64,000 bases of DNA from Dehalococcoidia bacterium UBA5748 (GTDB lineage Bacteria; Chloroflexota; Dehalococcoidia; Dehalococcoidales; UBA5627). The stretch spans positions 35,130 through 99,129 of the forward strand of contig DIFM01000041.1 in assembly GCA_002419135.1 (NCBI GenBank), read 5' to 3'. A program made the translations under genes and the position numbers. The notes beneath the pieces are model-generated. The model ran no database searches and had not been told where the DNA came from. It saw nothing but the letters and a program-made list of their open reading frames with translations. This document shows positions 14,040 to 38,977 of this stretch, piece by piece (within the stretch, counting starts at the first letter, position 1; each line of letters starts with the position of its first letter).

Positions 14040-14077
14040 TAAATGGTTCTAAAAAATATTTTGTTACTGTAAGCTTA

Positions 14078-14296: not shown

Positions 14297-14491
14297 GGTC
14301 AACCTCCTCAGTGGTCTTGTGAGCTGATACTCATAAAATATTATGAATAGAGTATAGTATGAAAAAATGATGAGGTCAATAAAAAATGGCCTTTTTTTCG
14401 GTGAAATATATAGTAAATAAGTACTATACCATCAATTTTACGATTAGACGAAGGCAACAAATTATAATACTATACTATCGAAGTCATACGA

Positions 14492-16637: not shown

Positions 16638-16654
16638 TTATTAAGATATCCCTT

Positions 16655-21588: not shown

Positions 21589-22149
21589 ATGGAAAAAACT
21601 CAAACTATGAGCTTTTTAAAAGAGGTTAGTCAGGTCCCCGGTGGCGAAGGAGTAAATCTGTGTATTCAGTGTGGCACATGTACCGCGTCATGTCCCAGCG
21701 CCAAAATATGGGAATACACTCCTTCAGAGGTAATCGCTATGGTCAGAGCAGACATGCGCGATGCAGTGCTCTCAAGCAGTTCAATGTGGTGTTGCCTTTC
21801 CTGCTATTCATGTACTGTCCGCTGTCCAAGGGACGTCGAGCCTACAAGTTTGTTTCACGCGCTCGAATCCCTGGCGATAAAGCATGGTTACAAGCCAAAA
21901 AATACAACTACACCGGTAATGTACAACAGTTTTGTGAAGTCCATCAAAAAGAACGGCAGGGTAAGCGAGTTTCAGATGATGATGGGGTATTATCTTTCCA
22001 CCAATCCTTTTAGTGCCTTGGGTATGATGTCGGTGGCATGGAAACTGTTATCGCATGGACGTATGCCGCTTTCAGCGAGAAAGATTAAAGGTAAAAAGGA
22101 CCTTGATAAAATTGTGAAAAAACTGAACGAAGTTAGAGGTGCCCAATGA
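21589..22149 (+). CDS. hdrC: Heterodisulfide reductase subunit C-like
   Basis: 186 aa with two CX2CX2CX3CP motifs (CIQCGTCTASCP, CLSCYSCTVRCP). Overlaps hdrB by 4 nt. Confidence 0.85.
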   Translation: MEKTQTMSFLKEVSQVPGGEGVNLCIQCGTCTASCPSAKIWEYTPSEVIAMVRADMRDAVLSSSSMWCCLSCYSCTVRCPRDVEPTSLFHALESLAIKHGYKPKNTTTPVMYNSFVKSIKKNGRVSEFQMMMGYYLSTNPFSALGMMSVAWKLLSHGRMPLSARKIKGKKDLDKIVKKLNEVRGAQ

Positions 22150-23015
22150 AGAGCTATACATATTTCCCCGGCTGTTCATCGGAAGCTACTGCTGTAGGAT
22201 TGGATGTTTCCAGCAGGTCCATAGCGGAAGCTCTGGGAATGGAATTGAAAGAACTGGAAGACTGGAATTGTTGCGGTTCTACTCCTTACGGCTCACTGGA
22301 TGAGCTGGAAGCAATTGCCGTCGCAGCGCGGAATCTGGCTCTGGCAGAAAAAACGGGGCTGGATTTGGTTACCCCATGCAGTTCGTGTTTTGTCACCCTC
22401 AGTAAAGCCAGAGTACATATGATGGAAAAACCGCAGTTAAAAGCCAAAGTCAATCAAGCTTTAGCGGCTGTGGGATTGGAATATAAGGGTACTGTAAAGG
22501 TAAGGTTATTAATTGAAGCTCTGATGAGCGACATTACTGCGGAGACAATTACTTCCAAAGTTAAAAAGCCCCTTAAGGGATTGAAAGTGGCCCCCTATAC
22601 CGGATGTCAGGAGGTTCGCCCCAGGTTTGGTTTTGACCATCCGGAAAATCCCATTGCGTTGGATACCATAGTAGAAGCAGTTGGCGCTGATGCTGTCCCG
22701 TACCCTTCGAAGAGCAAATGTTGCGGCGGCTCGGCAGTGATAGCAGAAGAAGGCCTTTGTATTGAATTGATGTACAAATTACTGGACGATGCTGCAAAAA
22801 ACGGAGCCGAATGTATCGTTACCCCCTGTCCGCTCTGTCAGATGAACCTTGATGCCTATCAGGCTAAAGTAAACAGCAAATACAATACCAATTTTAATTT
22901 ACCGGTTTTGTTTGTTACACAGCTAATTGGTGTTGCACTCGGATTAAAGCAAGATAAATTGGGCTTGAAAAAGAATATTGTCAACCCGAATAAAGTCCTG
23001 GCGAAATATCTGTAA
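22146..23015 (+). CDS. hdrB: Heterodisulfide reductase subunit B-like
   Basis: 289 aa with two CCG-type cysteine-rich domains (WNCCGS...PCSSC; KCCGGS...PCPLCQ). Confidence 0.85.
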   Translation: MKSYTYFPGCSSEATAVGLDVSSRSIAEALGMELKELEDWNCCGSTPYGSLDELEAIAVAARNLALAEKTGLDLVTPCSSCFVTLSKARVHMMEKPQLKAKVNQALAAVGLEYKGTVKVRLLIEALMSDITAETITSKVKKPLKGLKVAPYTGCQEVRPRFGFDHPENPIALDTIVEAVGADAVPYPSKSKCCGGSAVIAEEGLCIELMYKLLDDAAKNGAECIVTPCPLCQMNLDAYQAKVNSKYNTNFNLPVLFVTQLIGVALGLKQDKLGLKKNIVNPNKVLAKYL

Positions 23016-23029
23016 AGGAGAGCGGAACT

Positions 23030-26000
23030 ATGGATGAAGTAAGAATTGGCGTTTATATATGTGATTGCGGTACCAATATCGCAGCTACAGTGGATACAAA
23101 AAAAGTAACTGAATTTGCCCAGGGATTGGATTCGGTGGTTGTTGCGCGTAATTATAAGTATATGTGTTCTGATCCCGGTCAAAACCTGATAAAAGATGAT
23201 ATCAAGGAAAAGAAGCTTAACAGGGTTGTAGTAGCAGCATGTTCTCCGAGGATGCACGAACCGACTTTCCGTAGAGCTGTGCAGGACGCAGGTATTAATA
23301 AATATTATTTCCAAATGGCAAATATCCGCGAACAGTGTTCATGGGTGCACGAGAATAAAGAAATGGCGACCGAGAAAGCCAAGGCTCTGGTTGAAGCTGC
23401 TGTGCGTCGTGTAGCATATCATGAGTCTTTGCAGACCAGGGAAGTGCCGGTCAACCCGAATGTGCTGGTAGTTGGTGGCGGTATCGCCGGTATTCAAGCA
23501 GCGCTGGAGATTGCCGATGGCGGAAAGAAGGTATATCTGGTGGAAAAAGATCCCAGCATCGGCGGTCATATGGCAATGTTTGATAAAACATTCCCTACAC
23601 TTGATTGTGCGGCCTGTATTCTGACTCCGAAGATGACCACGGTTGGGCAACATCCGAATATCGATCTTTTAAGTTACAGTGAAGTGGAAGAGGTATCCGG
23701 CTTCGTTGGCAATTTTAAAGCAAAGATAAAAAGAAAGGCGCGCTATGTTGATGAAACGAAGTGTACCGGCTGCGGTGAATGCACTAAAGTATGCCCGGTA
23801 CATGTAGATAATGAATTCGATATGGGTTTAAGCCAGCGTAGTGCTGCATACATTCAATCTGCTTATGCGGTACCTAACAAGGCTGTTATCGATAAAAAAG
23901 GTGTATCCCCTTGCCGTGTTGCCTGTCCGGCCGGGGTAAATGCTCATGCCTATATTGCATTGATATCCCAGGGAAAGTTTAAGGAAGCGTTGGAGGTGGT
24001 ACGCAAATCGATTCCGCTGGCAGGGGTAGTCGGTAGGGTCTGCTATCATCCCTGTGAAACTGAATGCGAGAGAGCTACGGTTGATGAAGGACTTATGATA
24101 CGCGACCTGAAGCGTTTTGTCGCTGATTATGAAATGAAAATCGGCAGGGAAAAGGCCGGTCCTGTTGAAATCACAAAAGATGACAGGGTGGCTGTAATCG
24201 GTTCCGGTCCCGCAGGGCTTGCATGCGCTTTTGATTTAATAAAGAACGGCTACCGTGTTACCGTATTCGAAAAGGCAGAGAAAGCCGGTGGTTTGATGAG
24301 GTACGGTATACCGAATTTCAAATTGCCTGAGAATATCGTGGATAACGAAATAGAATGTATCCAAGAAATGGGTGTTGAAATAAAAACCGGCTCTGAGATT
24401 AACGATATTCCCGATCTGTTCAATAAGGGCTATAAAGCAGTATTTTTAGCAACGGGAGCAGGTAAAAATAAGGAACTCGGTATTCCCGGTGAAGAAAACG
24501 ATAATGTGTTCCCGGCTCTTGATTTCCTGAAAAAAATCAATTCGGGCGAAAAGATAGCGGTTGGTAATAAGGTTGTTATTATTGGCGGTGGCAATATTGC
24601 GGTTGAAGCGGCAAGGGTTGCATGGAGATTGGGAGCAAATGATGTTACGATTGTTTACAAAAAATCCGAAGCCGAAATACCAGCCAGTGACAGTGAAGTT
24701 GAAGAAGCTGAACAAGAGGGCATTAAATTCAAATACGACACTACCGCCGATGAAATCGTAGTGCGCGATGGTAAAGTAACGGGTGTTAAATGTGTCAGCG
24801 AAGCTAAAGGGCAAAAATCCGATCAATTCGTGATAGATGCCGATAATGTAATAAATGCAGTCGGACAGGCGGTCGAAAAAACCGAACTGTCGAAAGAACT
24901 GGCGTTTACCGATTTGGGTTATCTGGAAGTCGATCCGGTTACACTTGAAACTAATGTTTCAGGGGTATTTGCCGGTGGTGAAGTAGTGGCCGGACAATTG
25001 GATGTGATTGCATCTGTTGCTGCAGGTAAAGCCGGTGCTGAAAGTATTGACAGATATTTAAGTGGCAACGATATGCGTGAAGGACGCTTCGAGCAGATGC
25101 CTCGTGTAACTAAGGTTAACAAGGATAAAGTCAAAACAAAGACCAGAGTAGTTATGTCTAAATTGGAAACCTCGAAACGAAATGATAATTTCGATGAGGT
25201 TGAACTCGGATTTGACGAGAGCCTTGCTATAGAAGAAGCCAAACGCTGTTTGAATTGCGCTGTTTGTTCTGAATGTATGTTATGCGTAAAGGCATGCGAA
25301 GCCGAAGCAATTGTTCATGACGTCAAAGAACAGACGCTCGAAGTCGAAGTAGGTTCTATTATTGTGGCTACCGGAATGAAGCAATTCGACCCTGAGGTAA
25401 TGTACACTTATGGATATAACCGCTTCGATGATGTTTTAACAGGTCTTGAGTTCGAAAGGCTTTCAAATGCGTCGGGTCCTACCGATGGTGTTGTCGTTAA
25501 AAAGAATGGAGAGAAACCAAAGAGTGTAGCTATACTGCACTGTGTAGGAAGTCGTGATGAAAACTACCACAAGTATTGCTCTCGTGTATGTTGTATGTAT
25601 TCATTAAAGTATGCCCATCTTTTGAAGGAAAAATTACCCGAAGCCGATGTTTATCAGTTGTACATAGATATGCGCTGCGCCGGTTCTGGATATGAAGAAT
25701 TCTACCTCAGATTACAGGAAGAGGGTGTCAATTTTATAAGAGGACGAGGAGCAGAAATCACGAATACGGCTGAAACGCCGGAAGAGAAAGATAAACTTAT
25801 TGTTCATTGTGAGGACACTCTGATACGTAAGAAAAGAAGGTTGCCTGTAGATATGGTAATCCTGAGCTGTGCTCTTGAGCCGAGCGATGGTGCCGAACAA
25901 ATTGGGAGAGTTCTTTCAATCAGTAAAAAAGCGGATGGATTCTTCCTTGAGAAACACCCCAAACTGGACCCGGTATCAACAATGACCGATGGAATATTCA

Positions 26001-26341
26001 TAGCGGGTTGCTGCCAGGGGCCGAAGGATATCCCCGATACGGTGGCTCAGGCTTCGGCGGCTGCCGCCAGAGCGCTGGCTATGATAAGTAACAATAAAGT
26101 CGAAATCGATGGGGCTACATCGGAGATCATTGAAGAATTATGTTCCGGATGTCGTATCTGTAATAACCTGTGTCCGTACAGTGCGATTACATTTAATGAA
26201 ACTAAAAAGGTATCCGAAATCAATCCTGTTCTCTGTAAGGGGTGCGGGGTTTGCGTATCTGCCTGTCCTAGCGACGCTATAACGGGCAATCACTTTACCA
26301 ATAAACAGATAATGGCAGAAATTGAGGGGGTGTTAGCATGA
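23030..26341 (+). CDS. hdrA: HdrA-like flavoprotein carrying an inserted GltD/NfnB-like NAD(P)H-binding module (1103 aa)
   Basis: HdrA hallmarks: N-terminal [11 protein letters not shown] site [36 protein letters not shown], and C-terminal [12 protein letters not shown] / [12 protein letters not shown]. Between them (about aa 290-700) is a GltD-like block: [10 protein letters not shown]...[31 protein letters not shown]...[31 protein letters not shown]. Confidence 0.85.
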
Positions 26342-26757
26342 GTTTTGAACCTAAGATACTAGGTATCCTCTGTAATTGGTGCTCTTATTCGGGTGCTGAT
26401 TTGGCAGGGACTTCACGAAAAAAGTATCCTGCAAATATCAGGATAGTGAGGGTGATGTGCAGTGGCAGGGTTGACCCTGTATTCATCCTGAAAGCCCTTC
26501 AATCGGGGGCTGACGGAGTATTAATTCTTGGATGTCATCCCGGGGATTGCCATTATACTTCAGGTAATTATAAGGCCTTGCGGCGCATGGAAATGTTAAA
26601 AAAATTGGCGGAGCAGATGGGGATCGAAGACGATCGCATTCGCCTTGATTGGGTAGCGGCATCCGAAGGTGATAGATTTGCAGAGATAATAAAAGATATG
26701 ACAGAAAAAATTAAACAGTTGGGGCCTTTCCCCAGGGATGGAGGAGATAATGGCTAA
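26338..26757 (+). CDS. mvhD: MvhD-like (methyl-viologen-reducing hydrogenase delta subunit) protein
   Basis: 139 aa with [21 protein letters not shown] and [10 protein letters not shown] motifs. ATGA overlap with hdrA. Confidence 0.85.
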
Positions 26758-27706
26758 ACCAAAGGTGGCGTTATATTGGGCTGCCAGTTGCGGGGGTTGC
26801 GATATCGGCCTTCTGGAAATTGGTGAAAACCTGCTCAAGTTGATTGAGGCGGTGGACATTGTATTTTGGCCGGTTGCCATTGACGTTAAATATAAGGACG
26901 TTGAAGCTATGGAGGATGGGAGTATTGATGTCTGCCTGTTCAATGGTGCGATCCGCAGCTCTGAACAGGAGCACATTGCAAAGCTTTTGAGGGCAAAATC
27001 AAAGGTTATGATAGCTTACGGAGCCTGTGCTTATCAGGGAGGTATTCCGGGTCTGGCCAATATGTATAACAGGGAAATGATAATGGAGAGAGCATATCTG
27101 GAGACACCTTCTACTGAGAACCCCGATAAAGTTCTACCCCAGACGAGCTATCAGGCTCCGGAAGGAGAGCTTACTTTACCATTGCTTTTTGATACGGTTA
27201 AAACACTGGCACAGACAGTAAAGGTTGAATATATAATTCCCGGTTGTCCACCCGAAGCGCAAACAACATGGATGGCTCTTGAAGCATTGATAACCGGTCA
27301 AATGCCTCCTGTGGGAACGGTTATTACCGGTAACGCTAAGGCTGTTTGTAACGAGTGCCCGCGTAAGCGTGATGTTAAGAAAGTAAAGAAATTTTATAGG
27401 ACCTATGAAATTGATCCGGACCCCGAGATATGTCTTTTAGAACAGGGACTTCCGTGTGCCGGAATTGCTACTAAGGGCGGCTGCGACGCCAGATGCCCCA
27501 AAGCAGGGATGCCCTGTACCGGTTGTTATGGCCCGGTGGATGGTGTAATTGACCAGGGGGCGCATTTTATGAATGCTATAGCTTCTGTTATCGATTCAAA
27601 TGACCCGAATGAAATCGGAAAAATCATTGCAGATATCAGAGATCCTGCCGGTACATTCTATCGCTACAGTTTACCTGATTCCATATTAAGGAGGGCCAGA
27701 GTTTAA
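26750..27706 (+). CDS. mvhG: [NiFe]-hydrogenase small subunit, MvhG-like (group 3c type)
   Basis: N-terminal [15 protein letters not shown] and C-terminal Cys clusters ([30 protein letters not shown]). The start is taken at the ATG preceded by GGAGGAG; the track start is at 26738. Confidence 0.8.
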
Positions 27707-29163
27707 TGAGAAAGATTAGTATAGACCCGATTACAAGGCTTGAAGGGCATGGAAAAATCGAGATATTCCTTAATGATGAGGGAACGGTAGAGAACAGCTA
27801 TTTTCAGGTACCTGAACTGCGTGGCTTTGAAAAGTTTTCGGAAGGAAGATTAGCTGAAGATATGCCTCAAATTACACAGAGGGTTTGCGGCGTATGCCCG
27901 GAGGCGCATCATCTGGCATCGACCAAAACGCTGGATGCACTTTTCCATGTAACCCCGACCAGCACTGCCAGGAAACTGCGAGAACTGTTATACAATGCAT
28001 TTTATGTAACCGACCATACTACACACTTTTATATCCTGGGAGGTCCTGATTTTGTTATGGGTCCGGATGCGCCGGTCGCAGAACGCAATATTATCGGCGT
28101 TATCGGTAAGGTGGGGCTGGAACTGGGTGGCGCGGTCATCAATACCAGAAAAAAATGCCATCACTTAATCCAGGAGTTGGGTGGTAAGGCGGTACATCCG
28201 GTTTTTGGGTTACCGGGAGGTGTCAGCAGGGGCATAAACGAAGAGGAACGAAAGGAATTTGAACAAATTGCCAGGGATTCTCTTGAGTTTGCCAAGCTTT
28301 CCTTGAAAGTATTCGATGATATAGTTTTGGCTAATAAAGAATATGTCGATATGATTGTCAGCGATGCCTATACTCATAGGACCTACTCTATGGGACTGGT
28401 GGATGAGAATAATAAAGTAAATTACTATGATGGAAAGATAAGAGTTGTTGATCCGGATGGAAAAGAATTTGCTAAATTCGAGCCTAAAGATTACCTTGAG
28501 CATATAGCCGAACATGTCGAACCTTGGAGCTATATTAAGTTCCCGTATCTGAAGAAGGTCGGATGGAAAGGTTTCGTGGACGGAAAAGACAGCGGTGTAT
28601 TCCGTGTTGCTCCGATGGCTCGTCTTAACGCTTCGGATGGTATGGCAACGCCGGTGGCACAGGAAGCATACGAAAAGATGTATGATACGCTTGGCGGGAA
28701 ACCGGTGCATCATACTCTTGCTATTCATTGGGCAAGACTTGTTGAAATGGTACAGGCTGCCGAAACAATGATTGCTCTGTGTACCGATCCTGAGATTACC
28801 GGCGATGATTTAAGAAATATTCCTACGGCTACTCCTGATGAGGGAGTTGGGATAATCGAAGCTCCCAGGGGCACTTTAATTCATCATTACCAAACAGATG
28901 AAAAGGGCATAATTAAGAAGGCTAATTTAATTGTAGCAACAGTTAATAATGGAGCAGCGGTTAATATGTCCATTAATAAAGCAGCCAGGGCTCTCATCCA
29001 ACCGGATAAAGAAATAACGGAAGGATTGCTCAACCGTATCGAGATGGCATGGAGACCGTATGACTTATGTCTGGCTTGTGCCAGCCATAATTTACCGGGG
29101 CATCCGGCAATGCCGATGTATGTTTATAATAAAAATAAACAAATAGTAAAAAGTTGGGAATAG
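27706..29163 (+). CDS. mvhA: [NiFe]-hydrogenase large subunit, MvhA-like (group 3c type)
   Basis: 485 aa with N-terminal RLEGHGKI and RVCGVCPEAH, and the C-terminal DLCLACASH motif followed by a 24-aa extension. Confidence 0.85.
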   Translation: MRKISIDPITRLEGHGKIEIFLNDEGTVENSYFQVPELRGFEKFSEGRLAEDMPQITQRVCGVCPEAHHLASTKTLDALFHVTPTSTARKLRELLYNAFYVTDHTTHFYILGGPDFVMGPDAPVAERNIIGVIGKVGLELGGAVINTRKKCHHLIQELGGKAVHPVFGLPGGVSRGINEEERKEFEQIARDSLEFAKLSLKVFDDIVLANKEYVDMIVSDAYTHRTYSMGLVDENNKVNYYDGKIRVVDPDGKEFAKFEPKDYLEHIAEHVEPWSYIKFPYLKKVGWKGFVDGKDSGVFRVAPMARLNASDGMATPVAQEAYEKMYDTLGGKPVHHTLAIHWARLVEMVQAAETMIALCTDPEITGDDLRNIPTATPDEGVGIIEAPRGTLIHHYQTDEKGIIKKANLIVATVNNGAAVNMSINKAARALIQPDKEITEGLLNRIEMAWRPYDLCLACASHNLPGHPAMPMYVYNKNKQIVKSWE

Positions 29164-29176
29164 ATTACATAACATT

Positions 29177-29638
29177 TTGAAAACGCTTATTTTAGGATTG
29201 GGTAATCCATATCTCTGCGATGACAGCGCCGGCTTGAAGGTAGTCAAGCAGCTAGAAAAGAGGTTATCCAATCCCGATGTTTCTTTAAATGAGACCAGCC
29301 TGGCAGGTATTAATCTACTTGATTACCTGGTAGGCTACGACAAGGCTATCATTATCGATGCTATCACATCACCGAATGGTAAACCGGGTAGTATTTATCG
29401 CTTGACTCCCGAGGAATTCGATACTACTTGTCATACTACTTCCAGCCATGACATCGGTGTCATTGCCGCCATTGAGCTTGGCAGGAGGTTGGAGTTATCG
29501 ATGCCGAAAACAATAGAGATTATCGGTATAGAGGCACTTGACGTCAGCACTCTTACAGAGGAATGTTCCCCTGAGGTGGAGGCTGCAATTCCAATGGCAG
29601 CGGATATGATAGTAGAGGAAGTAAATGTAACGCCTTGA
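29177..29638 (+). CDS. Hydrogenase maturation endopeptidase (HybD/FrhD family)
   Basis: 153 aa with ILGLGNPYLCDDSAG, IIIDAI and TSSHDIG, matching the metal-ligand pattern of the family. TTG start. Confidence 0.8.
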   Translation: MKTLILGLGNPYLCDDSAGLKVVKQLEKRLSNPDVSLNETSLAGINLLDYLVGYDKAIIIDAITSPNGKPGSIYRLTPEEFDTTCHTTSSHDIGVIAAIELGRRLELSMPKTIEIIGIEALDVSTLTEECSPEVEAAIPMAADMIVEEVNVTP

Positions 29639-29708: not shown

Positions 29709-30785
29709 ATGTGTATTTTATCGCAAAGCAACACACTTCAGATTAATCAGAGCACAGGCCAATACCTCAGAATTGAGCAATCGAACCTGTTGTCTATGCC
29801 ATTGTCAGAACTTAATTCATTTATCAGAGAAATTGAAAACAGCGAGTTGTTTGTTAAATATTTTAGGGAAAACAAAATTGTCCGCTATCAGAGATTTGAT
29901 AATTCAGATACATATATAAGCCATTTAAAATTTGATGAATCGGCTCTTGTTGATAATCAGCCTCCTGAAATAGATTCATTGCTGGAAAACAATCAAAACA
30001 CGATTGAATACATTCGTAAAATCGGTCCGGATAATTTTAAGAAATTTTTCATGGTACCGGAGGAAGGTCAATCCGAAGATGAAATTGCATTTGCCTGTGG
30101 CATACCTATAGCGTATGTTAAGGATATCAATAATCTGGTAAATGATATGGCGGTACTGGATGAGTTCCATTCTACATCCTCTCTTAACATTAATGATGTC
30201 AATTATACTAAAGTCGCCGCTATTGATAGAGAAGGAGACGGATTCAGGGTAAGCTATTATTTAAACTCTCTGGCAAGAGGGCGGTATCTGATAAATTATG
30301 AAATGCTTGAAGAGCATATAGTCCGGAAGTGCGTCAATGACGATGAAATAAAAAAAATAAGAGCCCTTCTTAAAAAGCTGGAGATGATAAATGTCTGTAA
30401 ACAGACATTGCATATCATTTTAATTAATTTAATCCACAAACAATGGGCTTTTATTGATTCGGGGAATTTCAAGGATTTATTGCCGCTTAGTCAAAAAGAA
30501 TTGGCTTTTCAACTGGGAATCAATCCGGCTACCTTAAGCCGTGCCATTAAGTTGAGAACAATAGATATTCCTTGTGGGCGGGAGATAACTCTAAAAAGTC
30601 TGTTTCCGAATCCAAGAAAATTCCGGATGGCGGTCCTGAAAAAGGTTTTACAGTCAGAAAATAATCTTATATCAGATAGAGTAATACAATCTAAACTATC
30701 CGGAAAATATGGAGTAAACATCTCAAGGCGTACAGTTGCAAATATGAGGAGGGAATTGAAAATACCTGCCGGGGGAGCTAGATAA
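29709..30785 (+). CDS. rpoN: Short sigma-54 (RpoN)-like factor, 358 aa
   Basis: C-terminal RpoN box ISRRTVANMRRELKIPAGGAR. HTH and flanking region CKQTLHIILINLIHKQWAFIDSG...LLPLSQKELAFQLGINPATLSRAIK...LKSLF. Gln/Leu-rich N-terminus LQINQSTGQYLRIEQSNLLSMPLSELNSFIREIENSE. Confidence 0.75.
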   Translation: MCILSQSNTLQINQSTGQYLRIEQSNLLSMPLSELNSFIREIENSELFVKYFRENKIVRYQRFDNSDTYISHLKFDESALVDNQPPEIDSLLENNQNTIEYIRKIGPDNFKKFFMVPEEGQSEDEIAFACGIPIAYVKDINNLVNDMAVLDEFHSTSSLNINDVNYTKVAAIDREGDGFRVSYYLNSLARGRYLINYEMLEEHIVRKCVNDDEIKKIRALLKKLEMINVCKQTLHIILINLIHKQWAFIDSGNFKDLLPLSQKELAFQLGINPATLSRAIKLRTIDIPCGREITLKSLFPNPRKFRMAVLKKVLQSENNLISDRVIQSKLSGKYGVNISRRTVANMRRELKIPAGGAR

Positions 30786-32735
30786 ATGAGTATCATTTAT
30801 ACTGAAAAAGATAAATGTAAAAGTTGTTACGCGTGTATACGCAGTTGTCCTGTTAAAGCTATTAAAGTCGAAGATCGACTGGCACAGGTAATACGAGAGC
30901 GTTGTATAGTTTGCGGAAACTGTTTGGAAGTATGCGTTACCGGTGCAAAGAAAGTTGAGAGCGATACCAGCCTCGTGTGGCAATTACTTAGCAAAAGGGA
31001 TAATTATTTAGTTGCGGTAGTTTCCTCATCTTTCCCGGCTGCCATGCCCGAAGTAGAACCGGGTAGTTTTGTTTCTGCATTGAAAAAATTGGGCTTTAAT
31101 GAAGTTATGGAAGATTCCGTTGGCGCAGAGTTAATAGGCAAGGAATACAGACGTTTGTTAACTAATCAGACCGGTAAACCGGTCATATCATCAAACTGCC
31201 CGGCGGTAGTAAATTATATAGAAAAATATTATCCCAAGTTAATTGGCTATATGGCTCATATCGTATCGCCGACTATAGCAACCGGCAGGTTGATTAAAAA
31301 CCATTATAACAGGGCAGCAAAAGTTGTTTTTATCGGTCCTTGTGTTGCAAAAAAAGATGAGGCGCGTAAACCCGGTAACCGTGGCGTGATAGACGCCGTT
31401 TTGACATTTGCCGAGCTCAAAGAAATGTTTACGGCGAAAAAGATAATCCCCGAAAAAGAGCCCCCATCAAGTTTTAGCGGGCCGACTCCCGACTTAGGCA
31501 GACTGATGTCTATTTCCGGAGGGTTGGCAAAGATTGCCGGGCTGTCAGATGATATCCTGAAAAACGAGGTGATCGGTGCTAACGGAAGGGAAGCGGTATC
31601 AAAAATATTAAAAGAGTTTGCCCATGGCGAGATTAATGCAAAGCTGATAAATCTCTATTTTTGCCACGGATGTGTTGGCGGTCCGGTAATCGATAATGAT
31701 TTGAGTATCTACAGACGCGAGGAACTTGTTGCTCGCTACGCATTAAAAGAATCTCATCCGGAACGGACGAAAAGCGATCTTGAGAAGTATGCTGATATCC
31801 AATTAAGCCGGCAATTTGTAACTCAGAATGTAATACTTGCCTCACCGGGTGATGAGGAAATTGAGAAAGTACTGCAAAAGATGAATAGGAGTAATCCTGA
31901 GGAACAGTTTAATTGCGGTGCCTGTGGTTACAGCTCGTGTCGTGAACTGGCTATGGCTGTTTGTGAAGGATTAGCAGAAATTGAAATGTGCTGGCCATAT
32001 TTGCATAAACATATGCAGGAAACGCAGGATGGATTGATACAGGCAGAAAAGATGACTTCTCTCGGGCAGCTTGCTGCTTCGGTTGCGCACGAAATCAACA
32101 ATCCCTTGTCAGGTGTTCTTATATATACGCAGCTTATGTCCAAGAAGTTAAAGGATAAGAATTATAGCACAGACGTTGCCCTGGACTATTTATCAAAAAT
32201 GGAAACGGAACTCAATCGAAGTACCAAGCTGGTCAGAAGTTTGCTCGATTTTTCAAGACAAACGGTTCCTGAGTTTTGGGAAGTGGACGTCAATGAGATA
32301 GTCGAAAGAAGTTATGACCTTGGTATACATTCGGCGGAAATGCAAAATGTGGAAGTATTAAAGCACCTTTCGCCGAATTTGCCTAAAATAGTGGCTGATT
32401 TCGGACAGATTCAGCAGGTTTGTACCAACCTTATAATGAATGCCATACAGGCAATGCCCGGCGGGGGAGTTTTAACGATACGTACATTACCGCTGGATGA
32501 ACAGGTACTGATAGAGGTAAGCGATACCGGAGTAGGAATATCACAGGAGAATATGAAAAAGCTTTTTACTCCTTTTTTCACCACAAAAAAAGAACAAAAA
32601 GGGGTGGGGCTGGGATTGGCAATATCTTACGGCATTGTCCAGCGTCATCATGGAAGAATAGATATAAAAACCAAAGAAGGAGAAGGCACAACGTTCAAGG
32701 TCTACCTGCCTGTCGTACATGAAGAAGAAGATTAA
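30786..32735 (+). CDS. Soluble sensor histidine kinase with an [FeFe]-hydrogenase H-domain-like sensor
   Basis: 649 aa with no TM segments. Two 4Fe-4S motifs (CKSCYACIRSCP, CIVCGNCLEVC). H-cluster-like motifs SSNCP (C138), GPCVAKKDE (C186) and FCHGCVGGP (C293/C296). A CGACGYSSC...C...C module, the H-box SVAHEINNPLSG, and HATPase motifs NLIMNAIQAM, DTGVGI, GVGLGL. Confidence 0.8.
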   Translation: MSIIYTEKDKCKSCYACIRSCPVKAIKVEDRLAQVIRERCIVCGNCLEVCVTGAKKVESDTSLVWQLLSKRDNYLVAVVSSSFPAAMPEVEPGSFVSALKKLGFNEVMEDSVGAELIGKEYRRLLTNQTGKPVISSNCPAVVNYIEKYYPKLIGYMAHIVSPTIATGRLIKNHYNRAAKVVFIGPCVAKKDEARKPGNRGVIDAVLTFAELKEMFTAKKIIPEKEPPSSFSGPTPDLGRLMSISGGLAKIAGLSDDILKNEVIGANGREAVSKILKEFAHGEINAKLINLYFCHGCVGGPVIDNDLSIYRREELVARYALKESHPERTKSDLEKYADIQLSRQFVTQNVILASPGDEEIEKVLQKMNRSNPEEQFNCGACGYSSCRELAMAVCEGLAEIEMCWPYLHKHMQETQDGLIQAEKMTSLGQLAASVAHEINNPLSGVLIYTQLMSKKLKDKNYSTDVALDYLSKMETELNRSTKLVRSLLDFSRQTVPEFWEVDVNEIVERSYDLGIHSAEMQNVEVLKHLSPNLPKIVADFGQIQQVCTNLIMNAIQAMPGGGVLTIRTLPLDEQVLIEVSDTGVGISQENMKKLFTPFFTTKKEQKGVGLGLAISYGIVQRHHGRIDIKTKEGEGTTFKVYLPVVHEEED

Positions 32736-34068
32736 AATATTAATTGTAGATGATGAAGACGTAATCCGTGATTCGTTTTATGAATGGTTAACGGAGTTAG
32801 GTTATGATGTTCTGCTGGCTGAGAACGGTATTAGCGCTTTAAGTGTTATCAATGAGAAAAAACCTGATATTGCTTTTATTGATTTGGTTCTGCCCGGAAT
32901 GGACGGGATAGAGGTTTTGAGAAAAATCAGGGAAACAGGACAAGGTACCGGTTGCGTAATTATGACTGCGTACGGAGGTATATCCACTGCTATAACCTCA
33001 ATGAAGGAAGGTGCTTTCGATTATATTGAAAAGCCTTTTTGCCCCGGTAAAGTGGAACTTTTAATTGAAAAGATGATAGAACATCAAACAATAAAAAAAG
33101 AGAATTTGTTGTTGCACCAAAAGCTTGATGAACGCTTTAATTTTGAGAACATTATTTACAAAAGTACCAAAATGCAAAGAATAGTTGAACTGGTTAAGGC
33201 TGTCGCTAAAAGCAATGCTACGGTGCTTATAACCGGAGAAAGCGGCACCGGAAAAGAATTGATTGCCAGGGCAATACATAGCTACAGCAATCGTTGTAGT
33301 AAACCATTTATTGCTATAAGTTGTGCCGCTCTGCCGGAGAATATTCTGGAGAGTGAATTGTTCGGACATGAAAGAGGTTCGTTTACCGGCGCCCATGCCC
33401 GCAGGAAGGGTAAATTTGAAATTTCCGATGGCGGAACCCTTTTTATGGATGAAATCGGAGACATGAGCACCAATATACAGATTCACTTATTGAGAGTGTT
33501 AGAAGAAAAAGAGTTTACACGGGTAGGCGGTAACGAAGTCGTTAAAGTGGATGTGAGATTGATATCAGCCACCAACAAAGATATGAAGCAGGAAGTCTTG
33601 AATGGTAATTTCAGGGAAGACTTATACTATCGGTTGAATGTGGTTAATATTGAATTGCCTCCCTTGCGTGACAGAAAAGAGGACATCCCGTTGCTGGCGG
33701 AGCATTTTTTAACTAAGTTTGCCGAAGAGAATAAAAAAGACATCAAAGACTTAAGCCCGGATGCCATTAATGATTTATTGAAATATGATTGGCCCGGTAA
33801 TGTCAGAGAGCTTGAAAACGTGATAGAGCGGGCGGTAATTCTGTCAGAAGAAAGTTTGCTAAATACAAAAGACCTGTTTTTAGAAGAGAACGGTGTACTT
33901 GTAGGGGAAAAAACATTAACCAGTATAACGGAAATTGAGAAAAAGCATATTGTTAATGTTTTGGAAGAATGCGGTGGGAATTGTACTAAATCGGCTCGTA
34001 TTTTAGGAATATCACGTATGACGCTGTATAATAAAATCCGGTCATATGGCATTGAAGTAAAAAAATAA
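32719..34068 (+). CDS. Sigma-54-dependent NtrC-family response regulator (enhancer-binding protein)
   Basis: 449 aa. REC (ILIVDDED, IAFIDLVLPGMDG, EKPF), AAA+ (GESGTGKE, GSFTGA loop, LFMDEIG, RVGG) and a C-terminal HTH (KSARILGISRMTLYNKI). Overlaps the kinase gene by 17 nt. Confidence 0.9.
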   Translation: MKKKIKILIVDDEDVIRDSFYEWLTELGYDVLLAENGISALSVINEKKPDIAFIDLVLPGMDGIEVLRKIRETGQGTGCVIMTAYGGISTAITSMKEGAFDYIEKPFCPGKVELLIEKMIEHQTIKKENLLLHQKLDERFNFENIIYKSTKMQRIVELVKAVAKSNATVLITGESGTGKELIARAIHSYSNRCSKPFIAISCAALPENILESELFGHERGSFTGAHARRKGKFEISDGGTLFMDEIGDMSTNIQIHLLRVLEEKEFTRVGGNEVVKVDVRLISATNKDMKQEVLNGNFREDLYYRLNVVNIELPPLRDRKEDIPLLAEHFLTKFAEENKKDIKDLSPDAINDLLKYDWPGNVRELENVIERAVILSEESLLNTKDLFLEENGVLVGEKTLTSITEIEKKHIVNVLEECGGNCTKSARILGISRMTLYNKIRSYGIEVKK

Positions 34069-34089: not shown

Positions 34090-34105
34090 TGGCATAATAA
34101 TTGCA
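34090..34105 (+). promoter_or_regulatory. Sigma-54 (-24/-12) promoter
   Basis: TGGCAT-AATAA-TTGCA, against the consensus TGGCAC-N5-TTGCW. It begins 22 nt (a 21-nt gap) after the activator stop and lies 46 nt upstream of the ATG at 34152, which is preceded by GGGAGGG. Confidence 0.7.
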
Positions 34106-34151: not shown

Positions 34152-34562
34152 ATGAAATCATTCGATCTTATTTCTATTAACCCTAGGGATGTTCCTGAAC
34201 ATTTGAAAATAGGGCAGGAAAAATACGAGAATGGTAATTACGAGGAAGCTGTAAATGAATTCAGTTCCATATTGAATGTAGCGCCCAGCAATATCGATGC
34301 CAGGATATGGCTTAGGAAAGCGCAGGTTTCTCTGGATAAAGAAAAAGGGCTCCTTTCTGAAAAAGTAGCAAATCCCAAAATTAAGGAATTAAAAGAACGT
34401 CCCGGTGCGCAAAGATATTGCCTGTATTGTGTTAAAGGGGATGTTTCAAACAGGGTATGCAGTCGTCTTTTTCAGTGTAAGACTTGTGAATTCGGGCAGA
34501 ATATGCAGAATTTACAAAAAGCAAAACTGGCTGCCAAAAAAGAAGCGGTTGTAAAAGAATAA
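34152..34562 (+). CDS. Small protein with a TPR-like helical N-terminus and a C-terminal Cys-rich (zinc-ribbon-like) segment
   Basis: 136 aa. GQEKYENGNYEEAVNEFSSILNVAPSNIDARIWL looks like a single TPR. The C-terminus carries CLYC-x9-C-x6-CKTC. It is the first ORF after the sigma-54 promoter. Confidence 0.55.
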   Translation: MKSFDLISINPRDVPEHLKIGQEKYENGNYEEAVNEFSSILNVAPSNIDARIWLRKAQVSLDKEKGLLSEKVANPKIKELKERPGAQRYCLYCVKGDVSNRVCSRLFQCKTCEFGQNMQNLQKAKLAAKKEAVVKE

Positions 34563-34611: not shown

Positions 34612-36954
34612 ATGTGTAATATGAATGAGAGTTCTGTGCTTGTTATCGAAAGTGATCCCATTGTTAGGGAATCTCTCAGTGGTTGGTTGAGCAGCACCGG
34701 ATTTGAGGTTACTTCTGCAGAAGACGGGGAGAAAATTGTAAAAGTTTTCGCCAAAAGTGATTTTAATATTGTTATAATGGATGTCCGTTTGCACAGTGAA
34801 ACACAGCTGGCGACACTCCGGGAAATGAAGGCAATTCGTCCATGGATAAAAACAATTATAATCGCAGCTCATCCACAGGAAGAAACAGTGCTGGAAGCCA
34901 AAAAAATCGGAGTAGTAGACTATATTGTAAAACCTGTGGATATGGATGACCTGCAAAGAATTATACAGGGGTCAGTAGAATCTATTTACAAAGATAATGT
35001 TAATATTACCGATGATAACACTTCCTTCGAAAGTTCCGGTGATGAGCTGGTGCCGGGAATAAAAAAATCATTTGCCATATCGAGAGAATACCTGTCTTTA
35101 ATGGTAGAAAATCTACTTAGAGAAACCGAAGTTATCGGGGTGAAGGCGAAGCAGGGAAAGTATATCTACGACAGGATTCATGGTTTTTATGAACTTAGTC
35201 TGGATTATGATGTTACGGTGTCGCCACCCACCAGATATATGTTTCCAGCCAAAGAGACACTCTTAAAATTTAAAACGGGAAACGGCAACCATGTGGAGCC
35301 GGTAATTGAATCCACGCCGAGGGTGATTATCGGTGTTCATCCATACGATATCAAGGCTATTGAATTACTGGATGACGTTTTTATGAACCATAATCCCGAC
35401 CCGAACTACATCGCAAGGCGGGAAAATACAATAATTATCGGAGTGGACTGTCTACACCCGTCGCCCCGCAGTTTTGCGCCCAGTATGGGGACCAATTGGA
35501 CTGAAACAGGCTTTGACCTGCTGTTAACCGATATCGGAAACAGTTATATTGTAAAAATAGGGACCGAAAAAGGGGCGGAACTGCTGGCAAAACATACCAA
35601 ATACCGTTTACCTACCGGAGATGAAATTGTCAGGCAGAAAAAGGTAAGGGGAGAGGCTTTAAACAGATATAAAGTTGCGCTGGATACACCAAAGGACAGA
35701 ATCCCCAAAATACTTGAGGAAAGTTATGATGACCCTTATTGGGAGAACAGGAGCGCAACATGTTTAAGTTGCGGGTCATGTATTATGGTCTGTCCTACCT
35801 GTTACTGTTTTGATGTAAAGGATGAGATGGCGTTGAATTTAACGGAGGGCGAAAGATTCAGGCGCTGGGACGGATGTATGCTGGTTGATTTTGCAAAAGT
35901 TGCTTCGGGGGAAAACTTCCGGAAGGATAAAGCCAGCCGTTTTCGCCATAGAATGTTTCGCAAAGGAAAATATATACTGGAAAGATATGGGAAAGTCGGA
36001 TGTGTAGGTTGCGGCCGCTGCTCAAGTGCTTGTTTGGCGGGTATTGCCAGTCCGCTTGAGGCATTTAACTCGCTGGCAGAAAATATTCGCTTAAAGGAAG
36101 CTGCAACCAGCGTTATTCAACCTGCAAAGCAGGCAATGGATATTTATACTCCGGAAATGGCAGAAATTCTTTCGGTGAGGCAATTAACGGAGAAAGAAAA
36201 AGTTTTTGAATTAAAACTAAAAAGCGGTAAAAAACTGGGACATTACCCCGGACAGTTCGTTACAGTTTCAATAATGGGTACCGGCGAAGCGCCGTTGTCC
36301 ATTTCGTCTTCACCTTTAAGAGGAAAAAACTTTCAACTGGCCGTGCGTAGTATGGGCGATTTAACATCAGCGCTGCATTCGGTAGAAGCAGGCGCTACGG
36401 TAGGTATCAGAGGACCGTTTGGCAATGGTTTCCCTCTGGAAACACTGGAGGGGAGGGACCTGTTGCTTATCGCCGGTGGAATCGGGCTTTTCCCATTGAG
36501 ATCGCTGATACAATATGTGATGGATAGGCGATATGATTACGGTAAGGTAAGCCTTCTTTACGGTTGTCGTACACCTGCCGAACGTGTTTTTACCGATGAA
36601 CTGGATTTTTGGCAAAACAGCAAGGATATAGATTTCCATGAAACGGTTGATCTGCAAAGCGAAGGGTGGACGGGTAACGTGGGGGTAATTACCAATTTAA
36701 TCGATAAAGTGGAGATTGACCCTAAGAAGACTATGGTGGCGGTGGTAGGACCGCCGATAATGTATAAATTTGTTATCGAAAAATTAAAAAAGAGGGATTT
36801 GCCTGATGCTCATGTTTTTCTCTCTTTGGAACGTAAGATGAAATGCGGAGTAGGTAAATGCGGGCATTGCCAGATTAACGGTATATATACCTGTCAGGAA
36901 GGGCCGGTGTTTTCACTTACGCAGTTAAGAAGTTTGAGAGAGGCGGTGCTGTGA
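34612..36954 (+). CDS. Receiver domain fused to hydrogenase beta-like (4Fe-4S) and gamma-like (FAD/NAD(P)/2Fe-2S) subunits of a group-3b-type [NiFe]-hydrogenase
   Basis: 780 aa. REC at about aa 8-120 (VLVIESD, D57 in NIVIMDVRL, K107 in YIVKPV). Beta-like part with CLSCGSCIMVCPTCYC and CVGCGRCSSAC. Gamma-like part with PLSISS, LLLIAGGIGLFPL and C-terminal CGVGKCGHCQ. The start could be the ATG at 34621. Confidence 0.8.
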   Translation: MCNMNESSVLVIESDPIVRESLSGWLSSTGFEVTSAEDGEKIVKVFAKSDFNIVIMDVRLHSETQLATLREMKAIRPWIKTIIIAAHPQEETVLEAKKIGVVDYIVKPVDMDDLQRIIQGSVESIYKDNVNITDDNTSFESSGDELVPGIKKSFAISREYLSLMVENLLRETEVIGVKAKQGKYIYDRIHGFYELSLDYDVTVSPPTRYMFPAKETLLKFKTGNGNHVEPVIESTPRVIIGVHPYDIKAIELLDDVFMNHNPDPNYIARRENTIIIGVDCLHPSPRSFAPSMGTNWTETGFDLLLTDIGNSYIVKIGTEKGAELLAKHTKYRLPTGDEIVRQKKVRGEALNRYKVALDTPKDRIPKILEESYDDPYWENRSATCLSCGSCIMVCPTCYCFDVKDEMALNLTEGERFRRWDGCMLVDFAKVASGENFRKDKASRFRHRMFRKGKYILERYGKVGCVGCGRCSSACLAGIASPLEAFNSLAENIRLKEAATSVIQPAKQAMDIYTPEMAEILSVRQLTEKEKVFELKLKSGKKLGHYPGQFVTVSIMGTGEAPLSISSSPLRGKNFQLAVRSMGDLTSALHSVEAGATVGIRGPFGNGFPLETLEGRDLLLIAGGIGLFPLRSLIQYVMDRRYDYGKVSLLYGCRTPAERVFTDELDFWQNSKDIDFHETVDLQSEGWTGNVGVITNLIDKVEIDPKKTMVAVVGPPIMYKFVIEKLKKRDLPDAHVFLSLERKMKCGVGKCGHCQINGIYTCQEGPVFSLTQLRSLREAVL

Positions 36955-37694
36955 TGAAACCGAAAGTGGCTTTTTTTGATTTTACCGGATGCGAAGGCTG
37001 TCAGCTGGATGCGCTGAATTTGGATGCCGAAGATTTAATTGATCTGCTGAACGGGGTGGATATCGTCGATTTTAGGGAGGTAATGACGGAAAGGTCTGAT
37101 AATTACGATATAGCTTTTGTCGAGGGTAGTATAACTACCGAGGGTGAAATAGAACGTATCAAAAAGATCAGAGAACAGGCTAAAATAGTGGTTGCTCTGG
37201 GTGCTTGTGCCTGTATCGGCGGAGTAAATTGCCTTAAAAATCATGTGCCGATGGAAGAAGCTCTCAGAATTGTATATGGTAAAGATGCCAAATACTATAA
37301 TACAATACCCGCCAGACCTGCCGATGCTGTGATAAAGGTAGACCACTATGTTCGCGGTTGTCCGCCGTCTACTGCCGAATTAGTCAAAGTAATAAAGGCT
37401 TTATTAATGAACAAAAAGCCGGACATTCCCAGCTATCCGGTTTGTGTGGAATGCAAAATGGCAGGTAATATTTGTGTTTATGAAAAAGGGCAGACCTGTC
37501 TGGGGCCTGTTACAAGAGCCGGTTGCAATGCGATATGCATAACCAGCGGCAGGTATTGTTGGGGCTGTCGTGGTTTGGTCGATGAACCCAATATCCAATC
37601 TCAGAAAGACATTCTAAACAAATATGGGCTTACCGCAGAACAGGTGATAGAGAAGTTTAAAATATATGATACGTGCAGTGAGGTGCTAAAATGA
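36951..37694 (+). CDS. [NiFe]-hydrogenase small (delta-like) subunit, group 3b type
   Basis: 247 aa with N-terminal VAFFDFTGCEGCQLD, GACACIGG and C-terminal Cys clusters (CVECK, CLGPVTRAGCNAIC, CWGCRG). Start and stop overlap the neighbouring genes on both sides. Confidence 0.8.
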   Translation: MMKPKVAFFDFTGCEGCQLDALNLDAEDLIDLLNGVDIVDFREVMTERSDNYDIAFVEGSITTEGEIERIKKIREQAKIVVALGACACIGGVNCLKNHVPMEEALRIVYGKDAKYYNTIPARPADAVIKVDHYVRGCPPSTAELVKVIKALLMNKKPDIPSYPVCVECKMAGNICVYEKGQTCLGPVTRAGCNAICITSGRYCWGCRGLVDEPNIQSQKDILNKYGLTAEQVIEKFKIYDTCSEVLK

Positions 37695-38977
37695 CACAGG
37701 TTAACATAAATGTTCATCATTTAACCCGTGTCGAAGGACATGGCAATATTGTTCTCAATGTAAATGAAGGGAAAATTGAAGAGCTAAAATGGATTGTTTC
37801 GGAATCCCCCCGTTTCTTTGAAGTGATGATGCGTGACAGATACTATGAAGACGTCAATCATATAGCATCCAGAATATGCGGCATCTGTTCTATATCACAT
37901 TCCACAGTCTCTTTACAGGCTACCGAAAAGGCGTTTGGAATCAAACCTTCCGAGCAAACAATCCTGTTAAGAAAACTATTATTCAATGCGGAAGTAATGG
38001 AAAGCCATATATTGCATATTATGTTTTTAGCGGCTCCGGATTTTCTGGGTGTAGGCAGTGTTTTCCCGCTGATAAATACCCATAAAGATATTGTTGTTAT
38101 GTCTTTAAGACTGAAAAGGTTGTCTTATAATTTAGCTGAAGCGCTGGCGGGGAGAAAAACGCATCCTCTTTCATGTATTGTCGGTGGTTTTGCCAAACTG
38201 CCTCAATACAGTGAACTTGAAGACCTGCGTAAAAGACTTGAAGATGCTCTGATTGACCTTGCGACTATTGTTGACTTGTTCAAAACATTGAAAATACCGG
38301 AGTTTCAGCGTGAAACCGAATACATCGCTCTCAAAGATGAAAGCGAGTATGCTTTTATCAGCGGGCAAATTGCCTCTTCCGATACAGGGCTGACACCGGT
38401 AGAAAATTATCTCAAAGTCACAAATGAATTTTGTGTTCCCCAGTCTACGGCTAAATATACTAAAAATGCCAGAGATTCCTATATGGTAGGCGCCCTGGCT
38501 CGGTTTAACATAAATCATGAACAACTCCTTCCGAAAGCCAAAAACGCTGCCAATGAACTTGGGCTGGTAGCTCCTAATATAAACCCGTTCATGATAACTG
38601 TCGCCCAGCTGGTTGAGGTTATACACGTTGTGGAACATAGTATTCAAATAATCGACCGCCTGTTTGCTGCCGGAATAAAAGAAGAACCTCATCGGGTTAA
38701 TCCCAGGAGGGGACGAGGCATTGCTTCAGTGGAAGCGCCGCGTGGTATTCTCTTCCATGACTATACTTACGGAGAAGGTGGTGTTTTAAAAGAAGCCAAC
38801 TGCGTAATACCGACCAATCAGAATCACAATAATATTCAAAAAGATTTTGAATCGCTTGTTCCCATAATCCTGTTGCAACCCGAAAACCAAATACGGCATA
38901 CCATGGAAATGCTGGTAAGGGCATACGACCCGTGTATTTCGTGTTCAGCCCATATGTTAAAAGTCGATTTCAAATAA
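37691..38977 (+). CDS. [NiFe]-hydrogenase large (alpha-like) subunit, group 3b type
   Basis: 428 aa with RVEGHGNI, RICGICSISH and C-terminal DPCISCSAH followed by only 7 residues. The beta-gamma-delta-alpha order mirrors Pyrococcus furiosus hydBGDA. Confidence 0.8.
   Translation: MTQVNINVHHLTRVEGHGNIVLNVNEGKIEELKWIVSESPRFFEVMMRDRYYEDVNHIASRICGICSISHSTVSLQATEKAFGIKPSEQTILLRKLLFNAEVMESHILHIMFLAAPDFLGVGSVFPLINTHKDIVVMSLRLKRLSYNLAEALAGRKTHPLSCIVGGFAKLPQYSELEDLRKRLEDALIDLATIVDLFKTLKIPEFQRETEYIALKDESEYAFISGQIASSDTGLTPVENYLKVTNEFCVPQSTAKYTKNARDSYMVGALARFNINHEQLLPKAKNAANELGLVAPNINPFMITVAQLVEVIHVVEHSIQIIDRLFAAGIKEEPHRVNPRRGRGIASVEAPRGILFHDYTYGEGGVLKEANCVIPTNQNHNNIQKDFESLVPIILLQPENQIRHTMEMLVRAYDPCISCSAHMLKVDFK

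Follow-up and report, generated by a model that had tools for sequence, protein, structure and literature searches.

The gene at positions 30786 to 32735 of a 64,000-nucleotide stretch of contig DIFM01000041.1 from Dehalococcoidia bacterium UBA5748 (the whole 64-kb stretch that was analysed is called the window below) encodes a histidine kinase whose input half has the anatomy of an [FeFe]-hydrogenase. We are confident that the protein is an iron-sulfur (Fe-S), hydrogenase-like sensor kinase controlling the sigma-54 operon located downstream of it, and we consider it probable, with distinctly less assurance, that it is a cytoplasmic H2 sensor working through a full H-cluster with an input module of the group C type. 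A regulatory role in H2/redox metabolism is very likely because the kinase is accompanied by a cognate sigma-54 activator, because a conserved promoter precedes a hydrogenase operon, and because orthologues are found beside hydEFG and [FeFe]-hydrogenase genes. A first-pass annotation of the sequence had proposed a one-polypeptide H2 (or redox/O2) sensor kinase; the architecture and gene context support this proposal, whereas H2 binding and the 2Fe subcluster are the parts of it that we infer.

Architecture and class of the sensor kinase

The kinase gene and its parts, all on the + strand, are arranged as follows.

30786..32735, +, sensor histidine kinase of 649 amino acids (aa) with an ATG start (open reading frame (ORF) list, Pfam and NCBIfam)
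30795..30950, +, N-terminal ferredoxin-like domain, aa 4-55 (Fer4_10 and Fer4_7 matches)
31008..31685, +, H-domain Fe_hyd_lg_C, aa 75-300 (Pfam, E 2e-50)
31194-31196, +, codon of N137
31197-31199, +, codon of C138
31341-31343, +, codon of C186
31662-31664, +, codon of C293
31671-31673, +, codon of C296
31905..31994, +, C-terminal Fe-S module PF04060 FeS, aa 374-403 (Pfam)
32061..32714, +, kinase core, HisKA (aa 426-492) and HATPase_c (aa 541-643) (Pfam)
32088-32090, +, codon of the phospho-acceptor H435, within HisKA

The Pfam matches reproduce the domain order of the first-pass annotation, with two ferredoxin-type clusters, the H-domain, the Fe-S module, and the DHp and ATPase domains following one another. 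The H-domain motifs are likewise exactly those described, namely SSNCP at residues 135-139 (N137, C138), GPCVAKKDE at 184-192 (C186) and FCHGCVGGP at 292-300 (C293, C296). When the protein was aligned using HMMER to the solved HydA chains 7p5h (T. maritima), 8a6t (T. kivui) and 7q4v (A. woodii), all three motifs found their counterparts, SSNCP falling on TSCCP, GPCvaKKdE on MPCtaKKfE and FC-HGCvGG on ACnyGCvGG. On the basis of this alignment, N137 occupies the position of the proton-relay cysteine C299 of the hydrogenase CpI, and C138, C186, C293 and C296 correspond to the four H-cluster ligands.

The retention of these four cysteines and the replacement of the relay cysteine by Asn, both claimed at first pass, also hold among close relatives, which we defined as the 118 full-length proteins with at least 60% identity to the kinase. 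C186, C293 and C296 are Cys in all 118 and C138 in 117, and the residue at the N137 position is Asn in 101, Thr in 12, His in 3 and Ser in 2. K189 and E192 (CpI K358/E361) are invariant, as is G184 (CpI M353); P162 (CpI P324) is Pro in 116 of the 118, the equivalent of CpI F417 is mostly kept, and the position of CpI M497, Y291 in this protein, is Tyr in 57, His in 50 and Cys in 9. In CpI, K358 contacts the distal CN ligand. The ferredoxin cysteines form two CxxCxxCxxxC(P) motifs (C11/14/17/21 and C40/43/46/50), each Cys being present in at least 115 relatives. The module that starts with CGACGYSSC at residue 377 had been described with two further cysteines; it does follow the H-domain, and its ligands can now be specified as C377, C380, C385 and C402, a Cx2Cx4Cx16C motif that is invariant in the 118 relatives, whereas C393 is Cys in only 97 of them and is dispensable.

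The C-terminal half has the features of a HisKA-type two-component sensor kinase of the NtrB/AtoS/ZraS-like kind, with H435 and the N, G1 and G2 boxes in place. H435, E436, N438, P440, N552, D580, G582, G584, G606, G608 and G610 are invariant in the alignment of relatives, and the top NCBIfam kinase matches are AtoS and ZraS, both under their equivalog cut-offs. A Pfam scan of the protein detected no PAS domain at E <= 0.01, and the Fe-S module leads through a helix directly into HisKA. No transmembrane helix was found either, in agreement with the earlier description; as the most hydrophobic 19-residue window reaches a Kyte-Doolittle hydropathy of only 1.14, the kinase is soluble.

To place the input half more broadly, its sequence (aa 1-410) was used in an exhaustive search, which yielded 862 clusters at the 50%-identity level at E <= 1e-30. 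Among the best 150 of these 862 cluster representatives, the H-cluster cysteines are at least 90% conserved, the C299-equivalent is Ala in 43, Pro in 26, Ser in 25, Thr in 18, Cys in 15, Asn in 7 and His in 6, and the M353-equivalent is Gly in 145. Conservation across both the 118 close and the 150 diverse relatives indicates that the H-cluster motifs are not there by chance and are under selection. A Pfam census of 71 diverse relatives recorded HATPase_c in 39, HisKA in 37 and PAS in about 16; the three-part sensor module is a widespread cytoplasmic input domain, with kinase fusion as its commonest output. Ten of these 71 relatives have the sensor half fused directly to a sigma-54 AAA+ activator and HTH_8, forming one-component circuits. 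An identical protein is present in JGI metagenome 3300002219 (record SCADCLC_10007608, a 143-kb contig), and a 1.50-Mb ENA contig (ERZ21831104:ctg97406l) carries an orthologue with 85% identity in an unchanged gene order. The relatives carry annotations of Dehalococcoidales/Chloroflexota metagenome-assembled genomes (MAGs).

An AlphaFold2 model built with 59 relatives gave the H-domain a predicted local distance difference test (pLDDT) score of 85-95. Its N-terminal half superposes on 8a6t_A, 7q4w_A, CbA5H and CpI over ~360 columns at ~4 Å root-mean-square deviation, and its C-terminal half superposes on kinase cores of the ZraS/HK853 type. The N-terminal ferredoxin domain is modelled poorly (pLDDT <50). 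C402 directly precedes a predicted helix, 403-455, that is continuous with the DHp helix holding H435, and such a helix fits a direct mechanical link from the Fe-S module to the DHp domain.

The protein departs from group A hydrogenases in having N137, G184 and Y291 in place of C299, M353 and M497, and NCBIfam group A models score 99 bits on it against a cut-off of 406. The alignment to HydA also contains a 5-residue gap opposite the group A stretch with E279/E282 (CpI numbering). Groups C and D are characterised by two N-terminal [4Fe-4S] motifs, a C-terminal Cx2Cx4Cx16C and the lack of a conserved C299 (PMC8163306), and the kinase has this same assembly of two [4Fe-4S] motifs, H-domain and Cx2Cx4Cx16C, with C299 replaced and M353 changed to Gly. 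Since group D carries Ser/Thr at the M353 position (PMC8163306), the invariant Gly (118 of 118) points to group C rather than group D. The residue distribution at C299 and M353 among the diverse relatives mirrors the published statistics, in which the C299 position of the HydDB sensory set is Cys in 17%, Ala in ~43%, and Pro and Ser in ~10% each, and the M353 position of group C is Gly in ~51% (PMC10055695). The likeness to group C sensory enzymes noted at first pass is thus borne out. The lack of a PAS domain after the C-terminal cluster sets the kinase apart from the M2f/C3 (TmHydS-like) subtype. HydDB lists a subtype C1, 'histidine kinase-linked (putative)' (Sondergaard et al. 2016, PMC5037454), and HisKA and HATPase_c lie in the same polypeptide here, which provides the histidine kinase association of C1, HydDB classifier placement aside. 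Groundwater Elusimicrobia have also provided a group C enzyme with a fused kinase ATPase domain, whose relatives include Ignavibacterium and Caldithrix enzymes (bioRxiv 10.1101/765248). Judged by its sequence, the protein joins a putative sensory [FeFe]-hydrogenase of the group C type to a kinase and is of a kind already catalogued and biochemically untouched; its novelty is accordingly less than the first-pass annotation implied.

A conserved regulatory block in front of hydrogenase genes

The features that follow the kinase gene are listed below.

32719..34068, +, cognate response regulator, receiver (REC) domain with sigma-54 AAA+ activator and Fis-type HTH, NtrC/AtoC-like (Pfam, NCBIfam)
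34090..34105, +, sigma-54 type -24/-12 promoter TGGCATAATAATTGCA (consensus match, cross-locus conservation)
34152..34562, +, small TPR-like, Cys-rich protein, 136 aa, first gene behind the promoter (weak TPR matches)
34612..36954, +, REC domain with a HydB-like part containing Fer4_22 and a HydG-like FAD/NAD part, sulfhydrogenase-type beta/gamma (Pfam, NCBIfam)
36951..38977, +, [NiFe]-hydrogenase small subunit (36951-37694) and large subunit (37691-38977), group 3b-like, ShyA/HydA-like (Pfam, NCBIfam)

The start of the regulator gene overlaps the kinase stop codon, and the two genes adjoin in most Chloroflexota loci. The regulator gene is followed by a gap of 83 bp that contains the near-consensus promoter TGGCATAATAATTGCA, and from there it is 47 bp to the next ORF. 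Across the whole window the sigma-54 consensus is matched 28 times against 27.5 expected by chance, so that only position-specific conservation between loci is meaningful. To this end we compared the 16 Chloroflexota loci with a + strand gene no more than 400 bp after the regulator, in which kinase identity goes down to 52%; TTGGCA-N6-ATTGCA occurs behind the regulator gene in 13 of them, against a background of 0.025 matches per kb. A search of the Ignavibacteria loci gave no sigma-54 element behind their activator gene.

The block of sigma-54-like gene, kinase and regulator is conserved in Chloroflexota down to the same 52% kinase identity. Its first member is encoded directly upstream of the kinase, as it is in all 21 Chloroflexota loci (cluster c5):

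29709..30785, +, sigma-54-like protein, 358 aa (Pfam Sigma54_DBD, aa 212-357)

Only a C-terminal DNA-binding domain with an RpoN box is recognisable in this protein, and RpoN matches in the PDB cover its C-terminal part only; no activator-interacting or core-binding region could be recognised in its 358 aa. From its sequence, the regulon might have in it a dedicated or truncated sigma-54 of its own.

The genes behind the promoter always encode H2 or low-potential redox enzymes in the loci compared, and across Chloroflexota loci the enzyme genes begin with a receiver-fused redox subunit. Two variants occur: REC-HydB/G followed by a [NiFe] 3b hydrogenase, as here, or REC-NuoE, NuoF and a REC-HoxU-like protein followed by ApbE/Rnf. 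Examples of REC-NuoE and the REC-HoxU-like protein are encoded in other Dehalococcoidia at positions 13382-14305 and 16237-17250 of comparison locus L018; the receiver fusions are in every case located behind the conserved sigma-54 promoter. The acceptor Asp and the Lys are conserved in the REC domain fused to the hydrogenase subunit, and the domain content of such receiver-fused subunits suggests direct phosphorylation control of redox enzymes. The small TPR-like protein, with its TPR-like N-terminus and Cys-rich C-terminus (CxxC...CxxC), is kept in closer relatives (cluster c15).

Outside the Chloroflexota, full-length orthologues with 37-46% identity were identified in MAGs of Ignavibacteria/Bacteroidota and KSB1. 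In Ignavibacteria/Bacteroidota, where full-length identity is 37-44%, they sit between two trimeric group A [FeFe]-hydrogenase operons, and the gene order in Ignavibacteriales is hydE, hydG, an AspA-like ammonia-lyase, hydF, nuoE, nuoF, group A6 hydA, kinase, REC, sigma-54 activator, REC, nuoE, nuoF and a second hydA. The NCBIfam scores at the Ignavibacteriales locus are 316 bits for HydE (cut-off 255), 544 for HydG (cut-off 312), 533 for HydF (cut-off 326) and 866 for the group A6 HydA (cut-off 765). hydF lies within 10 kb of the kinase gene in 9 loci, and both hydE and hydG do so in 4. This hydEFG/[FeFe] neighbourhood is the strongest comparative evidence that the H-cluster maturases serve the kinase family and that this family regulates hydrogen metabolism. 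The gene contexts suggest that, in different phyla, one sensor module controls [FeFe]- as well as [NiFe]-hydrogenases. The AspA-type ammonia-lyase gene between hydG and hydF (locus L032, 2773-4191, +) recurs in loci L025, L026 and L042 (Ignavibacteriales/Bacteroidales); its position is consistent with a role of ammonia-lyases in dithiomethylamine synthesis that has recently been proposed (PMC11736057).

The metal site and the signal

If the module holds a full H-cluster, signalling might proceed as follows. At an H-cluster with C138, C186, C293 and C296 as its ligands, H2 would react slowly, the canonical proton relay being disabled by Asn for CpI C299, Gly for M353 and Tyr/His for M497. Depending on their redox or ligand state, the H-cluster and the accessory clusters would alter the conformation of the C-terminal Fe-S module, and autophosphorylation would be modulated through C402, which is predicted to stand where a long helix begins that continues into the H435-bearing DHp helix. 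The phosphoryl group would pass to the adjacent NtrC-type regulator, which would activate the sigma-54 promoter at 34090-34105 and so switch on the small TPR protein, the REC-fused beta/gamma subunit and the group 3b-like [NiFe]-hydrogenase. The direction of this response is presumed, as is phosphotransfer to either receiver; the receiver domain fused to the hydrogenase subunit may accept the phosphoryl group as well, and the upstream sigma-54-like protein may serve as a dedicated sigma factor. There is precedent for the first step in TmHydS and TamHydS, both of which react with H2 and contain a functional H-cluster (PMC8163306, PMC10055695, PMC13104023).

Several observations weigh against an H2 sensor with a full H-cluster. 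The sensory role of group C and D enzymes has never been directly demonstrated (PMC8924675). Within the kinase's own clade, the A-P-S of CpI 230-232, whose Pro is kept in 137 of the 150 diverse relatives, is S-S-S, and Asn replaces the D/E found two residues ahead of CpI M497; because of these changes the 2Fe pocket may be altered. Of the 2Fe-contact positions, the equivalents of K358, E361 and P324 are kept and those of A230/P231 are changed to Ser. The coupling step is uncertain because H2 does not reduce the C-terminal cluster in TamHydS, a structural instead of a redox role having been proposed for it (PMC13104023), and residues 413-435 of the linker helix have low pLDDT in the AlphaFold2 model. 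Finally, neither HydE, HydF and HydG nor a catalytic HydA were found in the 64-kb window and ~20 kb of extra flank (~10 kb of contig on each side, ~85 kb in all), the flanks bringing Wood-Ljungdahl and housekeeping genes into view and no maturases, and tblastn with Ignavibacterial seeds against the window and more than 60 loci found none of the four within 10 kb of any Chloroflexota orthologue. An NCBIfam scan of mid-sized ORFs in the window for HydE, HydF and HydG brought up only HflX, with a weak GTPase-domain match to HydF. Literature searches combining Dehalococcoid(i)a with hydEFG, or Dehalococcoid with sensory [FeFe], returned nothing relevant.

The failure to find maturases, together with the departure of the clade at conserved pocket positions, keeps a second explanation alive, less likely than the first but a serious minority view: the H-domain of the Dehalococcoidales clade would keep [4Fe-4S]H and lack the di-iron subcluster, as in Nar1/NARF-like proteins. 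Such a kinase might use its four [4Fe-4S] clusters to report the redox poise of a pool (ferredoxin or low-potential), or else damage by O2/oxidants, and regulate hydrogenases accordingly. It would suit the pocket changes just described and the Asn at the C299-equivalent, and the regulated enzymes in the clade are all [NiFe]-hydrogenases or NuoEF/Rnf-type modules. However, a site with a cubane alone would have no need of the invariant K189 and E192, the conserved G184 and P162, or the largely conserved F417-equivalent, and orthologues elsewhere are clustered with hydEFG. Maturases, moreover, need not be linked to their client, and the negative covers ~85 kb of this genome and the surroundings of the Chloroflexota orthologues. 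The first-pass annotation had named the absence of hydEFG as grounds for refutation; none was seen in the ~85 kb, yet this argument has become softer because active [FeFe]-hydrogenases have been reported from organisms without hydEFG (PMC11216029). Should the lineage indeed lack hydEFG, either another maturation route would serve a single regulatory protein or the H-domain would have been repurposed as a cubane-only redox sensor.

It is improbable that the signal is not H2 but a different small molecule that binds the H-cluster, for instance CO. The H-cluster does bind CO, and CO could be a relevant metabolite of a host with Wood-Ljungdahl and carbon monoxide dehydrogenase/acetyl-CoA synthase (CODH-ACS) metabolism, for which FTHFS, RACo, FolD and CdhD genes lie on the same contig. 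Against this, the regulated genes encode hydrogenases and NAD(P)/ferredoxin modules, not CODH, and characterised sensory-type enzymes have decreased CO affinity (PMC8163306). Least probable of all is a working catalytic hydrogenase with a degenerate kinase half or one unrelated to H2 signalling, for even though TmHydS and TamHydS retain low H2 turnover (PMC8163306, PMC10055695), here the proton-relay Cys is missing, the E279/E282 stretch of group A is opposite the gap, the catalytic residues of the kinase are all invariant, and the kinase gene overlaps that of a regulator followed by a conserved sigma-54 promoter.

Known systems and neighbouring genes

The closest counterparts of the kinase are the HydDB C1 and Elusimicrobia enzymes, which share with it the four H-cluster cysteines, the two N-terminal [4Fe-4S] motifs and the linkage to a histidine kinase, and for which H2 sensing is likewise only predicted. 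The Dehalococcoidales clade differs from C1 in being wired to [NiFe] group 3 hydrogenases and NuoEF/Rnf modules instead of [FeFe] enzymes, in its Asn at C299 and SSS for APS, and in coming with the sigma-54-like protein and REC-fused enzyme subunits. HydS of Thermotoga maritima (group C, M2f) and of Ruminococcus albus have the same order of two [4Fe-4S] clusters, H-domain and Cx2Cx4Cx16C. TmHydS, a low-turnover putative sensor, has also lost C299 (Ala in its case) and has Gly at M353 (PMC10055695), but it ends in a PAS domain and lacks a kinase, whereas here the Fe-S module joins the DHp domain directly, and its M497 position is Ser rather than Tyr/His. Thermoanaerobacter mathranii HydS (group D, M2e) resembles the kinase in having no PAS, a C-terminal [4Fe-4S] module and a broken proton pathway; its gene is flanked by one for a kinase-like ATPase (PMC8163306), which is separate there and fused here, and its M353 position has the Ser/Thr of group D in contrast to the invariant Gly.

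Two further systems share the logic of the circuit. In HoxBC/HupUV with HoxJ/HupT and HoxA/HupR (group 2b [NiFe]), a slow hydrogenase also acts as an H2 sensor that feeds a kinase, an NtrC-type regulator and hydrogenase genes, but that sensor has an unrelated fold and metal site and is a polypeptide apart from its kinase, which in the case of HoxJ contains a PAS domain. In clostridial sigma-54 activators (PMC6615313), Fer4/Fe_hyd_lg_C/FeS input feeds sigma-54 dependent transcription as well, though as one-component proteins, in contrast to the kinase and separate receiver-activator found here.

We suggest, tentatively, that in the Dehalococcoidales lineage an [FeFe]-type H-cluster protein may survive only as a sensor, governing the [NiFe]-hydrogenases and electron-bifurcating modules of a Wood-Ljungdahl organism via a private cassette. 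This would consist of a sigma-54-like factor in truncated form, an NtrC-type activator whose -24/-12 promoter is conserved, and a post-translational branch in which the kinase phosphorylates receivers on hydrogenase/diaphorase subunits. We know of no description of an [FeFe]-type sensor controlling [NiFe]-hydrogenases with a sigma-54-like companion and receiver-fused subunits. The receiver domains may put enzyme activity itself under phosphorylation control, and to our knowledge receivers on hydrogenase subunits have not been described in such a role.

The sensory role of group C and D enzymes has rested on domain content and gene context since ~2014-2016. It is still termed putative in papers of 2022-2026 (PMC8924675, PMC13104023). 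A soluble sensor-kinase fusion free of a PAS domain offers a direct, quantifiable output in autophosphorylation and phosphotransfer, and the fused kinase, the cognate regulator and the mapped target promoter make the sensory-hydrogenase hypothesis testable in vitro and in reporter strains. With its partner and promoter known, the fusion is a convenient system for this purpose.

Upstream of the sigma-54-like gene, a further set of hydrogenase-related genes is kept upstream of the kinase in closer relatives.

21589..29638, +, operon of hdrC, hdrB, an hdrA-like gene, mvhD, [NiFe]-hydrogenase small and large subunits (Vhu/Mvh-like, group 3c-like) and an endopeptidase

This operon is a possible second regulatory target; no sigma-54 element was found in front of it. 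The HdrA-like protein (23030-26341, +, 1103 aa) has an inserted GltD/NfnB-like module of Fer4_20 and Pyr_redox_2, a domain combination that suggests an NAD(P)-linked bifurcating complex of the heterodisulfide-reductase/Mvh type. Further upstream, positions 9847-13095 (- strand) encode a hybrid PAS-HisKA-HATPase-REC kinase of 1082 aa that is unrelated to the sensor kinase and whose N-terminal ~590 aa have no Pfam match. Just beyond position 1 of the window, on the same 143-kb contig, lie the Wood-Ljungdahl genes for FTHFS (formyl-tetrahydrofolate synthetase), RACo, FolD and CdhD (L064:15858-20648). The Dehalococcoidales host probably lives as an acetogen or a syntroph, to which H2 partial pressure is relevant.

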